From Amoeboaphelidium occidentale (Eukaryota), in assembly GCA_023515795.1 (NCBI GenBank), contig JALGPX010000037.1:1-64000 (forward strand): a stretch of DNA of 64,000 nt, read 5' to 3'. The notes beneath the pieces were generated by a model. That model was not told where the DNA came from and did no database searches. It saw only the letters and a program-made list of their open reading frames with translations. Of the stretch, positions 1-45,472 are shown piece by piece. The position numbers and the translations under genes were made by a program. Every line of letters starts with the position of its first letter. The first letter of the stretch is position 1.

Positions 1-194
1 GCTCGTTGTGTGATCATGAACTGGTTCAATCTCGATTCTGGTCGATCAAGAGTTGCAACAATAACAACTGCTGGACACGCTGGAATCGAGATGTCAATGC
101 AGCCAGGAATATCATGCGCGTTTTCCTTCATATGAATACTAATGGTGGTTACAGGCCTGAAGCGTTCCGAAGGGGAAACCCGCATGGTAACTGA
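1..194 (+). CDS. Fanzor/TnpB-family RNA-guided nuclease, C-terminal fragment (5' truncated by window edge)
   Basis: (C)SLC...CNNNNC zinc ribbon followed by WNRDVNAARNI (RuvC-III) and a G-x-RP-x-x-F-x-R tail typical of Fanzor1. Confidence 0.85.
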   Translation, partial: SLCDHELVQSRFWSIKSCNNNNCWTRWNRDVNAARNIMRVFLHMNTNGGYRPEAFRRGNPHGN

Positions 195-327
195 AACAAC
201 AACAGCCTCATGTGGTCATGGTGGAGAAGTCTAGGCGGAGGCAGCCAAAGATGACTCTCATGAAAGCCATGATCAGCGATAGCTCATCACTGTAGTAATA
301 TGGTGATGGGTGCTTTCGTGTACAGTG
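195..327 (+). ncRNA. Candidate Fanzor omega-RNA scaffold / element right end
   Basis: 9-bp stem 213-221/267-275 and 13-bp stem 282-294/299-311 closed by a GUAA tetraloop; several G-U pairs work only on the + strand; lies directly 3' of the Fanzor stop. Confidence 0.55.
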
Positions 328-424
328 TTTTTCTTGGAATTGATCAAGGTAATTTTTTATTTTATTTTGATCGCGTTGCTTACTTTCAGGAAAATACTGT
401 AATAATAAGATGCCCTCCGTGATT

Positions 425-1475
425 TCAAATTTGTATCGAAATGGAAGCTTGACAATATGGACACGTACTTATTAGAGTATTAAAGCGCCTTCTTGTGGTA
501 GGTACAGAATTACACCATTCTTTTATGCATTCATGATGAAACCCTTTGCTGCAAGTATTGCATTCAAACTGCGTATTATCAGTTTCAGTCAGACAAATAC
601 TGCATTGTTGTTCAGATGAACTTTGTGTGATATCTACATTTTGCGTTCTAAGTTTCAAATCAAATAAGTTCTCTAAGTTAACGTGGAGCGGCTTCGAAGC
701 CTTCCATGAATTCTTATTCGCATTCATCTTAGATCTCAATCTTGGAACCTCAGACTCTGGACCAAAAAGATTTATCTTGGGCATCGAAGTAGCGTTTTCT
801 TGCTTTACAGTTATTTCAGCTGTGACCCTGCTTTCTTTAAATAATAATTGTCTGCTTAAAGAATTTGTAACATGTTCGCGCTTCATGTAATCATCCAATT
901 CGCGCAAACAAGCCCAAGATTCTTCATAAGAACGACAAGACGCTTGATAACTGTCGTGCAGTGAAGCTAATCCAACTGAACTTTGGCTTTGCTTAAACTT
1001 CCTGGTGTTATCAGTGAAATGAGGCAACACTGAAGATGTCTCAAGAGTTGTTTCGCCAAGTTCGAAATCAACTGCAGCCTGGACCCTTAAAATGCCAGAG
1101 TTCCTGCTTCTATAGATTAAAGTAATATTCCGCAAATCCGTAGAAACATGCTCAATATTTTCCCACCTTATGGCCTCGAGATCGCAATTTAAATGAGTCA
1201 AGAAATCCAGACATGCTTCAGCTTTCAATGAGTCTGTTGAGCAAGGGCTGAAAATCTTGTTAATTTCTGCCTCTAAGTCCTCTGATGAGGAGTGTCCCTT
1301 TAATTTCTAAAGGATTATTCTTCCGGATTCAGAGTAGCAGTATTACCTTGGCTAAATCATGCTGGCCCACAGAAACGCCTAAACGGAGTGGCTTCAAAAG
1401 GCTCTCAGAGGATGCTATCACTGGGCTACCATGAACGAATAGAAGAAAAGTATTTGAAACAGGATCTATATTCAT
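425..1475 (-). CDS. FANCL: FANCL-like E3 ubiquitin ligase
   Basis: C-terminal RING CSIC...CSKGFHHECIKEW...TRRRFNTLISTCPYC preceded by an RWD-like region; one short GT-AG intron near 1308-1347. Confidence 0.8.
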
Positions 1476-3507: not shown

Positions 3508-4251
3508 CTATTGCGTATCAAGAAACGACTGATCTTGCACCTTGCGTTGAATGGCTTGTATCCATTGTTGAAACGCATTTGCTGGTATTACTTCTGTCCC
3601 CGAAGGATCAACTTTAACGAAACTCATAATATAATTTTGAAGATGATTTAAAATCTTCTCTACTATTACTCTGACTTTTTTGAGTTCTGGGTTCGTGTCC
3701 TCCGTAAGCGACATATTTGAACCCAAAAGTCTGGCATTTTCGTTACCAGCTTTGGCTTGCGCTACTTCATGTTCAGCTAATTCAACAGGCTCTACACATA
3801 TTCCAAGCTATAAAGGCAGTAAGAAGAAATCTCACTTGATCATTACCTGTGCGCATTGATTAATTCCAGAGGCAGCCGAGTCCCACATCCTTGCCCGTGA
3901 TTGCTGATCATCAATAGCTTTGTTCCCATTTAGTTTAAAAAGAGCGCTTGGCTTGTCGTTTGTTATCAAACCTTCAAGTCAACATTATGCATCTCTCAGC
4001 GTTTACCTAGCACTTGCCACTTTGAGTTGTTACCAGGCCAAAGAAAATGTACAGTCGCCGCATATCCGCTTGGGAATGGCTGCGTGATAAAGACCGTAAT
4101 ATGATTTACACTCGCAATGTCTTGTATAGAGAACATTGCGTGATTATTGTCCAACTGCTGGAATTCCGAGCAAACCTGGATATCTGTTAGTCCCGAATAT
4201 CCCACCATGACAAAATGTTACTGGTCTTCCAGGAATAACGTAACAAAACAT
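3508..4251 (-). CDS. Hikeshi/Opi10 family protein
   Basis: MFCYVIPGRP start, NHITVF, AATVHFLWP, KPSALFK, C-terminal FQQWIQ...QDQSFL; multi-exon. Confidence 0.85.
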
Positions 4252-5292: not shown

Positions 5293-6928
5293 TCAAACTC
5301 CAGAATTAGTCAAAGACAACACACATTCAGAAGAATCGAATGCAGTGAATGCGAGTTGAGAAGAATTCTGGGAAAAAGACATTGTCGACCCGTCTGAAAC
5401 ATACTTTGATACCATTAAAAATCGATCACTCGATGCGCTATCGTTTCCAGGTTGAAACTTTGGAATGTTAACAGCGCAGAGCATTGGCCAGAAATTCGCT
5501 AATGCCTCAAAGAAATGTTTCTTCAGCAGTTGTTTCGATTTTCTCTCTTCGCGTGTCAATAACTTCAGCTTTTCTTCCCAGAACTTGGAAAATCCAAGTA
5601 AAACATCTGAACAGTTAGATATCCGCAGCATTATTGAAACAGAGGGAAGACATGTAGGATCCAAACAAGGCTTCTCTTTTTTATGCATTGTAGCATCATA
5701 GAGAATTTTCCTCATAGTTGATAATACTTCAATAGATGTCAAAGGCGCAATAAGAGTTCTAGGTAACGTACTAAAAATCAGAACATCGAAGTTCATAACT
5801 ATACCTCAACTGCTTTATAAGGCTCTGGCTGAACTGCCAACAGTTCACAATTAAACGCGGAGATCTTTCCTGTGACCGTGCAAGTAATGAAGACTTTGTT
5901 TGATCAGTAGAGTTCAGAGGACTCGCTGGCTCAAGTGGTGTCCCACCAAACAGTTTAATTTCGTGCTGTTTAGAGTCGATAAGTTTCCCGTTAGACTGAT
6001 ATAGTGGCAGCAAACCCCAGCCGCAAGATGTTTCGATGTACTTCTCTTCCTGGGTTGTTGACATGACTATTACCAATTCAAACAACAGATTGATACCATG
6101 GCCAAGCTCGTTACACCGTAAAAATCCAGCATTTGGTTCATTCCGCGAAAATAGCGATGAATTCTAATTGTAAGACCATATTAACGAAACAACCTTCAGT
6201 GTGCACTTCCATTTGCTTGGAGTCTGATTATCGAATATCACTGGTACCATGAATACATTTCCGATGATCTTTATCTTATCAAATAAGCAAACGTTAATGT
6301 ATCTCCCTTTAACTTTGAAATCTGTTGACGGGAATGGAACTGATTTAGCCGCGATAACAGAGAATGCCAAATTGCATGAAGTATCATTCGCCATAATCTA
6401 AGATCAGCGAAACCATTTAAAAAATAACCTTTCCAGTTTTATGATCAACATCGAAGTCTGTGAACGAGAGACCATCAGCAGAAACCTGAGGGAAAATCTG
6501 ATCAGATAATCTGCCTTTTCCTGATGCCAAATATTGACTAACGGATGATGGCCTGAATCCTGTTGGAACATTTTTAAATGAACTTGCAGCTAAAGTTTCC
6601 GTAGAAGCGTTACCTAAAACGATATCAATAAAATGAAACTGGACAGTTTACGCTTCAGAGCTGTACTTTGTTGATTCTGTTTCGCTTCAGATGCCTGAAG
6701 TTGATATTCTGCTTCAAGTAGCTTGACAAATGATTTCGGGACATATCCTTCTTCCTCTCCTAGCCCCTCCATGATATCTTCCTTTGTGGGCAGCCTTTTT
6801 ACGAGATACCATTCAATATCATCCATGTTCAGTATGATCAGCTTGTCTCCCTGATTAAGATCGATCTCTTCCTCGGTTATAGCATCATAATCATACAAAG
6901 CAACTGCTTCAATATCTTTTGTGGGCAT
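5293..6928 (-). CDS. NPHP1: Nephrocystin-1-like ciliary transition-zone protein
   Basis: N-terminal SH3 (ALYDY...EGYVP) followed by NPHP1-type motifs LFEL...SCGW.LLPL...IKLFGGTP and STLP.TLI; multi-exon. Confidence 0.8.
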
Positions 6929-43136: not shown

Positions 43137-43621
43137 TGGTTTGGTGAAACAAGAGCAACACGGATCAAGATTGGTAGTCAGACCCTTGTGTTTCACATCG
43201 GGAAATTATGTCTAGGGAAATTTAATAGTATGAATTCTTATGAAGGTTAAGGTAGTGCCATCGCGCGAAGAATGATCTGTGTAGAAAGAGATGTTAAAGC
43301 TTGTGTTTCATGAGATTTCCGGCAAAAGTTTCATTTTGTATGAACGCACTGCACTTAGCATAAGGTCGATGGTCGACTTCTCGCTCTATTGAAGTAAAAT
43401 TAAGTAACTCAGCTCTAACTGCATTAGCTTTGACCTCTTACTATCCTTCGATTTCATTTTAACGCATACCCTACAATGAGCGAAAGCGCTTAAAATAATC
43501 CATTGCTACCTCTAATTCTATACCCTTGTATGATCAATATTTTGTCACTCGCGTTGTTTTGAGTTTTCCTGTTTGGACTTTGCGTTGTTGCCATTCTCGC
43601 TCATTAATCTTATTCTGTGCA

Positions 43622-45472
43622 ATGACAGTTGAGGAACGAGCTTCTATTAATTCAGACGAGGAAGAGGCGTATGACAGCGAATCGTCTGAGCCGCAGCCAG
43701 GAAAGATAAAACCGGCTTTCTACCACGACAATGGCGGTATTCCGGTATTTAAACCCACAATCGAAGAATTCCGGAACTTTTCGATATTTGTGGAGAACAT
43801 AAAAGATTACGGATTAAGAGCTGGAATAGTTAAAGTCATCCCTCCTAAGGAATGGAAAGAAAGCTTGCCAAAGATTCCGGATTATCTGCTGAACCAGGTG
43901 CAAATAAGATCAGCCATCAAACAAGAGTTTCAAGGCACGTCTGGCACGTTTAAACAAATTAACTTGGAACAGAAGAAAGTAATGAACATTAAAGAATGGA
44001 AAGATTTATGCGAAAAGCCCCAACATCGTACGCCACCAGTTTCCGGTGACATTGTGGATTCTGAGGATGTTAGCACGGCGTCGACTCCAAGTGATTCTTT
44101 AAGACTGCAAGATGTATTGCCTACACGAAGATTCCCAGCTGCCGATGATCATGCGTATTACAAAGAACTTGAACGAATTTACTGGAAAAATTTAACCTTC
44201 TTTTCGCCTTGGTACGGAGCAGACATAAAAGGTTCACTGTTTGATAATTCTGTGAAAGATTGGAATGTCGCTCGCTTGCCTAACCTTCTTCTTCGCATAG
44301 CACAAACGATTCCTGGGGTGAACACTCCATACTTGTATTTCGGAATGTGGAAAGCTACTTTTGCTTGGCATGTTGAAGATATGGATCTGTACTCAATTAA
44401 TTATATACATTTTGGCGCACCGAAACAATGGTATGCTATTCCTCAAGCATACAGGCAAAAGTTTGAACGATATTGCAGGAACTTGTTCCCTCAAGAATAC
44501 AAGAAATGCTCTGAATTTATGCGACACAAGATGTATTTGATGAGTCCTACTGTTTTGGCTCGCGAGAACATTCCTGTTCACAAATTGGTTCAAGAAGAGG
44601 GAGAATTTGTTCTTACGTTTCCGTATGGCTACCACGCAGGCTATAATATTGGCTATAACTGCGCAGAGTCCGTTAACTTTGCCATTGATAATTGGCTCGA
44701 ATACGGAAAGAAGGCGAAAAGTTGCATGTGCATAGATGATAGTGTCAAGTTGAATATTGATGATCTGTTTGATAGTTCAAAAAGAATTGGCAAGTCTTTT
44801 TACGCTGGGCTGTGTGTCTTGTGTGGAAAAGAAGGCGGCGATGACTTAATTCCGCTTTATCCTAATCCATGTCCATTTGCTGCCGCCCCTGCTGTTGCAC
44901 ATAGAATTTGTGCCGACTTTATTCCGGAATGCAACATATTGATTAATGATGGATCTGCCTATGTTGTTAACTATGAAGATATTCCGAAGGATAGAATGAA
45001 GTTAAAGTGCAGATTCTGTAAATATCCTTTTGGAGCTTGCATTCAGTGCGCTAAAGGAAAATGCGTTAAATCGTTTCATCCATGGTGCGCAAAAGAGAAT
45101 GATCTTTGCATGACTGAAGTTGTTGATCAAGATGGTTATGCATTGCGTTCTACTTATTGTGCTACTCACAACCCGAATGGCAAAGAGATGCCGTTGAAAC
45201 AAGAGAAAAGCACAGACATCGAAGCGATCCGCCAAGACATTGCGTCTGCTATGAAGAATAGTACGGCTATTTGGGTGAGATTTTATGATGATTCTTTTGT
45301 TGAGGGTAGAATTATTGAAGACTTTAAAGAAGATCCATTGGTTCGAGTTGCTTTTTCTATTGTAAGTTTCCCAATGCGTTCTGATTTCTAACTTTTATAG
45401 GATTATGCTAGAATTGTACCATATGCTGATTTGCTGTTTAAGAATCCTGTTGTTAATTTACTTGAGTTATAA
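43622..45472 (+). CDS. KDM4/JMJD2-family histone demethylase
   Basis: JmjN IPVFKPT, JmjC WHVED...YGYHAG...NCAESVNFA, PHD-type Cys/His region; one intron. Confidence 0.93.

Follow-up and report, generated by a model that had tools for sequence, protein, structure and literature searches.

Fanzor omega-RNAs have been mapped for few systems, and they differ widely. In the available portions of the published accounts, these RNAs abut the right end of their element and the guide lies beyond it (PMC10432273, PMC10530073); a Fanzor omega-RNA is recognized as a small RNA reaching 11–21 nt past the element end. In SpuFz1 and the SPu-1 elements of Spizellomyces punctatus, a structured region lies behind the Fanzor1 ORF and runs up to the element end, finishing with TA; the terminal repeat is about 30 bp long, and the variable flank serves as guide (PMC10432273 and PMC3627910, both in part). 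The SpuFz1 scaffold has 75 nt and two stems, and the RNA extends 14–15 nt past the conserved part. By our own count, over 15 of the 21 rows listed, the 75th base is the A of the TA, and the motif is CATA; on our reading of the listed sequences, the final stem forms between the end and an inverted copy of it farther inside. The GtFz1 RNA has 150 nt and four stem-loops (PMC11423790, in part), and the B. salamandrivorans Fz1 RNA has 229 nt by its listed coordinates. For ApmFNuc, conservation continues for 200 nt past the ORF (PMC10530073, in part).

The locus considered here opens a window of 64,000 nt from Amoeboaphelidium occidentale (contig JALGPX010000037.1), and its arrangement is that of SPu-1: a Fanzor1 ORF, a structured region ending with TA at the element end, an inferred terminal repeat of similar length, a last stem made from an internal inverted copy and the end, and a variable flank in the place of the guide. 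Unlike the SpuFz1 scaffold, the one predicted here has about 190 nt and three domains, shows no recognizable sequence likeness to it by eye, and has two conserved internal loops in place of the first-stem loop hexamer common to the S. punctatus and P. parasitica RNAs, which is absent from 195–401. It also differs from GtFz1, whose RNA overlaps the ORF at a locus without inverted repeats in the available text of PMC11423790. By eye, in a comparison made without model scoring, the window has no motif in common with GtFz1, B. salamandrivorans Fz1, or ApmFNuc. A preliminary description of this DNA had proposed an omega-RNA scaffold at 195–330. Our best explanation, in which we have good confidence, is that this interval is the 5′ two-thirds of a conserved region, 213–401, which forms the right end of a Fanzor1 transposon present in multiple copies; that the region is likely the omega-RNA scaffold; and that the predicted guide runs from 402 to about 416. 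The concept is known already and the protein family is in published lists; the scaffold is a new variant. The features are as follows.

3..194, plus strand: Fanzor1 ORF, C-terminal 63 codons and TGA stop, frame 3; the upstream part lies beyond the window start
213..275, plus strand: domain P1, with a 10-bp stem (213–222/266–275), an inner stem (229–231/253–255), and an apical stem (234–236/244–246)
232..233 opposite 247..252, plus strand: conserved asymmetric loop of P1, UA opposite NNN-GAU
276..319, plus strand: domain P2, with 4 basal bp (276–279/316–319), then the 13-bp stem with its tetraloop
within 276..319, plus strand: conserved internal loop of P2, UA / G(C/A)UU
321..401, plus strand: domain P3, terminal stem-loop whose closing pairs include the final bases of the element
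369..399, plus strand: inferred right terminal inverted repeat, about 31 bp, ending in ACTG; its left partner lies outside the window
400..401, no strand: TA common to the copies, likely target-site duplication by analogy to SPu-1; paired in the terminal stem
402..416, plus strand: predicted guide in flanking host DNA, placed by the variable flanks, its length by analogy with SpuFz1

Judged by its sequence, the upstream ORF is a Fanzor1. Its TGA stop lies at 192–194, the 63 preceding codons are open, and they encode three of the four zinc-finger Cys residues as well as WNRD with the third RuvC Asp; the match to PF07282 (E 0.0047) is below the cut-off. The closest relative is P0002, a protein of 354 aa with 98% identity to the segment. 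It contains the complete Fanzor motif of Bao and Jurka, given in the available part of that source as D-X(125-275)-[TS][TS]-XX-C4 finger-X(5-50)-RD, at D126, TS287-288, C291/294/309/314, and RD320-321, and it retains the acidic residues D126, E284, and D321. Its top PDB match is PpFz1 (E 0.00058). The segment compares with A. occidentale proteins at 78–85%, and the last 63 residues of KAI3657602.1, from the same species, differ from it once. This protein, listed as a protein only, is classed FZ1 in supplementary file 3 of Saito et al. (PMC10432273) and is also in Table S2 of PMC10711439, as far as these sources were available. The FZ1 class of the near-identical protein and the PDB match place the gene in the Fz1 clade, and the neighbors in this gene-dense window are eukaryotic (FANCL-like, mitochondrial carrier, annexin, Not1, XPB, and others). 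No transposase is found in the visible part of the window copy of the element. A. occidentale is absent from the other 8 supplementary files of Saito et al. that were searched, two PDFs being outside the search, and no omega-RNA is given for it there (PMC10432273). A search of the supplementary material available for PMC10530073 returned 0 hits, a main-text search for Fanzor with Amoeboaphelidium, its scope excluding subscription papers and patents, returned no paper, and the literature listings hold nothing on the window scaffold.

Downstream of the stop codon, the DNA reads as a structured RNA of the plus strand. The stem 213–221/267–275 that had been described is present in the letters and extends to 10 bp, 213–222/266–275. 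The smaller stems AGTC/GACT (228–231/253–256) and GGC/GCC (234–236/244–246) were confirmed, as was the 13-bp stem 282–294/299–311 with its four G-U pairs and GUAA loop. The plus-strand reading also holds, since 195–330 folds at a z of -2.66 on the plus strand and -0.69 on the minus strand. The fold is stronger farther 3′, with z values of -5.15 for 276–319 and -6.69 for 276–401. Among 212 control stretches of 130 nt from the window, two reach -2.66 or lower and one reaches -5 or lower; the value for 276–401 is beyond all 212, the control minimum being -6.0. The helices comprise 53 pairs, 12 of them G-U and none A-C. The stems of the proposed interval exceed chance, but the interval is too short, because the structured common region reaches 401. 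An Rfam search over 1–600 gave nine matches, the best at E 0.77 and all far under the gathering threshold.

Another pairing had been suggested for CACTGTA (288–294), with TACAGTG (321–327). The letters are complementary, but the pair probability is 0.000 even when 195–330 is folded alone. The predicted partner of 321–327 is 395–401, with a pair probability of 0.86–1.0, and CACTGTA is destroyed in a 3+3 deletion variant found in four runs. The 5′ arm of P3 (321–339) repeats the element end in inverted, degenerate form and pairs with 384–401, an inner stem is formed by 341–352/362–373, and the AU-rich tip is dispensable. Position 294 was considered as an older right end and rejected, as the motif is absent from relatives and from the deletion variant.

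The contigs of seven of 22 listed runs, one of them of RNA (X19), were compared with the window. According to the preliminary description, the element ended near 327 and the guide would occupy roughly 328–345. The shift to T past 327 is genuine (56% T in 328–345), the TA-CAGT motif at 321 resembles an end, and in X1 the unitigs break and the summed depth rises near 327–334, all of which would suit such an end. Against it, contigs span 327 uninterrupted (e.g., X1 65–356 and X3 197–402), and the copies are alike over 327–401, with flanks that differ only behind 401–412 in five runs. Loose ends at 331 run on as variant element sequence, 321–339 pairs with 384–401, and the similarity of a distant locus, L011, to the window continues past 327. 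Since 328–345 is invariant across copies, it cannot be a variable, flank-derived guide; it is element sequence, in the 5′ arm of the terminal stem. Both claims therefore fall, and we regard an end near 327 as barely credible.

Instead, among the rows listed, the contigs of X1, X2, X3, X7, and X8 have variable loose ends that start behind 401, 402, 403, 405, and 412, with a consensus agreement of about 0.5–0.7 where several contigs were pooled. The right end is placed at ACTG|TA, 399–401, because the earliest listed variable loose end lies behind 401; the later ones are likely chance extensions into AT-rich flanks. The CAGT ends may be those of a non-autonomous carrier of the Tc1/mariner type, which would have a terminal inverted repeat at either end and a TA duplication. 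In X1, possibly the run from which the window itself derives, the depth is 2898.5 on the contig over 65–356 and 106.4 on the flank contig over 381–900. This ratio of about 27 points to a multicopy element, although depth cannot be equated with copy number. The joins of diverged copies, at 205 in X7 and 210 in X8, mark the 5′ start of conservation. One diverged contig in X4 aligns at 262–363 but not at 115–261, coding DNA included. A depth step is present at 367–402 in X1, X2, and X7, and three X2 contigs match only this part and have a common, different interior; together, these suggest that the left end of the element has a terminal repeat of some 31 bp. Within the window there is neither a second copy of the repeat nor a second guide match, and no empty site is found among the listed contig rows.

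The predicted guide, 402–416, is unpaired or weakly paired in the folds. A FANCL-like gene (425–1228, minus strand) converges on the element, with 23 nt between its stop codon and the element end, and the predicted guide would thus be antisense to the likely 3′ UTR of that gene. Runs X2 and X7 have the same insertion flank as the window, but 11 nt are inserted behind 409, and the distal part of the guide would be altered by them.

Variation within the family mostly respects the fold. Changes at 215, 222, 266, 288, 319, 337, and 341 all preserve pairing, mostly by turning a G-U into a standard pair; those at 215, 222, and 266 are in P1, and P2 has 288 C>T and 319 T>C. Co-occurrence of changes was deduced from equal depths, and 215, 222, and 337 were read by eye from the loose-end consensus. 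The tetraloop is GUAA, GCAA, or GUGA, which we take to be of the GNRA class. A matched deletion of 3 nt per arm leaves a full 10-bp stem in X2, X4, X7, and X8 and is probably one inherited event. In P3, deletions of 7–9 nt occur at 356–358, in the AU-rich tip. Against the fold, an inner pair close to this tip is lost through 364 A>T, a frequent change in X7, and in one 5x X2 contig the changes at 366–370, among the differences listed, leave the inner stem only in a shifted register.

The family could have a real omega-RNA while the window copy is a dead relic, its ORF truncated or silent. Partial or scrambled proteins are found among the A. occidentale relatives (several, including P0003 and P0008), the same insertion flank in X1, X2, and X7 implies that the insertion is not brand new, and changes at 77 and 138 are private to the window copy. 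Yet its 63 visible codons are open and 98% identical to P0002, with its three acidic residues, and all helices are intact; moreover, working RNA scaffolds came from ORF-less S. punctatus loci. A dead copy is possible, though we doubt it, and it would be compatible with the preferred reading at the level of the family.

The preferred reading of 213–401 as a scaffold also gains from distant relatives. Scanning metagenomes yielded 80 loci with Fanzor-like genes. A model (R1) built from window positions 207–345 alone and searched against 87 sources (379 kb) matched, beyond the window, only L013 (E 2.5e-12) and L011 (E 5.5e-10); a refined model (R2) adds L015, at E 0.019 and 0.004. The matches begin 11–13 nt past the Fanzor stop (about 11 nt in L013 and L011, 13 nt in L015), on the same strand, in all three. 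Best-segment protein identity of the fold-bearing loci to P0002 is 46–51%, with about 47% for the two loci that R1 matched, and an end piece of 33 residues in L015 has 64%. In a structure-fitted alignment of the four loci, 96.9% of 127 cells pair and both sides have changed in 18 of 34 pairs; slid controls give 38–51% of cells pairing and 3–7 double-changed pairs. Even structure-blind MAFFT pairs 29 of 30 cells in P1 and 12 of 12 in basal P2, with four double changes. The conservation and compensatory change by which the preliminary description wished its stems to be judged are present over 213–319. The loops UA/NNN-GAU and UA/G(C/A)UU and the GUA after P2 are kept in all four loci, and P1 directly adjoins P2, with no spacer, in each. 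The P2 loop pattern occurs exactly four times in 758,928 bases, once per fold-bearing locus, having been drawn from the same loci. The main stem of P2, 13 bp in the window, has 8–10 bp in the relatives.

The independent lineages with the fold are three, L011 and L013 being 90% identical, and L015 combines a weak match with a broken reading frame. P3 is weak in L011 (-6.9 kcal/mol), and neither L011 nor L015 has an end that closes on TA. At E ≤ 5, R2 has no match in 83 of 86 loci, among them L007, which is 47% identical across the whole query; several contigs stop soon after the Fanzor stop. The L007 protein (3922–4042, P0024) has a C-terminal extension of about 40 residues, and its RNA may overlap this coding extension. 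The fold-bearing proteins are not one clade in a quick tree (35 rows, two changes; L015 and L016 left out). Searching the loci with 195–401 by blastn gave low-complexity matches only, and the search for close relatives with alignment A1 confirmed none among 110 viral stretches and none among 325 from metagenomes. Distant viral (six loci, 24–35%) and GTDB (three loci, 28–29%) relatives have no model match under E 0.9. A relaxed core search, run with no null, picked out candidates in eight of the 14 sequences; the ones from L010, L017, and L020 are unconvincing. Terminal repeats were not found in L010, L011, L013, L015, or L021. In L023, a 34-bp inverted match (82%; 5412–5446 with 2538–2571) flanks the Fanzor gene and is likely the terminal repeats of another family. 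Loci L087–L089 are Fanzor1-like genes (28–29%) on contigs of Gallionella and Nitrosocosmicus assemblies, possibly misbinned eukaryotic or viral DNA. In P0009, an unrelated N-terminal part, transposase fragment-like by eye, is joined to the C-terminus of this Fanzor family.

The stems might also act as DNA: 321–401 would be a very small element with inverted repeats that had entered at a TA, and the remaining hairpins would serve transposition. This stretch does start with TA-CAGT and finish with ACTG-TA, and the summed depth peaks over 331–402. But the arm mismatches are G-U-compatible only on the plus strand, the GNRA loops are retained in three variants, and the invariable GUA after P2 leads to a hairpin of unrelated sequence in L011, L015, and L014, while the window lacks a second copy. 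We consider a role at the level of DNA improbable.

A closer competitor concerns the extent of the RNA. The mature omega-RNA could be the 3′ part only (P2 and P3, 276–401, or P3), with P1 removed from it as a conserved structure of the 3′ UTR or of processing. Characterized Fz1 scaffolds can be only 60–75 nt, so P1 may be missing from the mature RNA; the SpuFz1 and PpFz1 RNAs are two stem-loops in 90 and 75 nt, and the conserved upstream part of a C. reinhardtii Fanzor RNA is missing from the reads. In L014, which has no R2 match, positions 694–758 hold a short hairpin closed by G, then GUA, then a terminal stem that closes on TA and ends CCGCACTA, the same last eight bases as in the S. punctatus scaffold; this is possibly a compact omega-RNA. 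On the other side, P1 abuts P2 in all four loci with its pairing and loop sequence kept, and Fz1 RNAs of about 150 and 229 nt (listed coordinates) exist. We give the shorter RNA a sizable minority share of the confidence placed in our best explanation, which it narrows rather than excludes. P1, conserved loop included, likely either belongs to the RNA or acts as a processing signal in the precursor. A canonical kink-turn in P1 was rejected on comparison with the kink-turn consensus: the strand opposite GAUG is CUA, without the G of CUGA, and the loop of UA opposite NNN-GAU is kink-turn-like but one G short.

Our best reading remains an omega-RNA scaffold of roughly 190 nt in three domains, at about 213–401. 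The candidacy made in the preliminary description stands as to the Fanzor1 upstream, the conserved plus-strand fold, and the expected place, but it had misplaced the end and the guide. The RNA run X19, as contigs, yielded a single 41-nt piece with eight mismatches, which is not a real match, and runs with a small share do not count as evidence. From what is known of characterized Fanzor1s, the transcript would run through the element end into host DNA and then be trimmed to scaffold and guide, the scaffold including the TA and the guide having about 15 nt. The P2-G-P3 core would bind the RuvC/TNB and WED surfaces, setting the guide right after the TA, and the complex would cut DNA matching the guide beside a motif ending in TA. 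The target would be the empty site after excision, or a homologue without the insertion, and cutting it would favor repair from the occupied copy, by which the element would be kept. In the available text of Saito et al., retention through empty-site cutting is raised only as a possibility (PMC10432273).

More broadly, and as a tentative idea that we would call unlikely, a Fanzor1 subclade of aphelids and soil eukaryotes may use an undescribed omega-RNA of about 190 nt and three domains, without the first loop of the S. punctatus and P. parasitica RNAs and with two conserved loops as binding sites for the nuclease or for a processing factor of the host. Candidate roles for these loops are protein contact or 5′ processing and, if true, they would offer a handle on how eukaryotes cut a guide RNA from Fanzor mRNA. 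Here, natural variation fixes the predicted scaffold, its end, and the place where the guide would start, and paired changes are found between loci whose proteins are only about 47–51% identical; an aphelid Fanzor1 is thereby made directly testable as a programmable nuclease.

Elsewhere in the window, a long imperfect hairpin at 44881–45050, with a z of about -6 on the plus strand, lies inside a JmjC-domain ORF (43526–45391).
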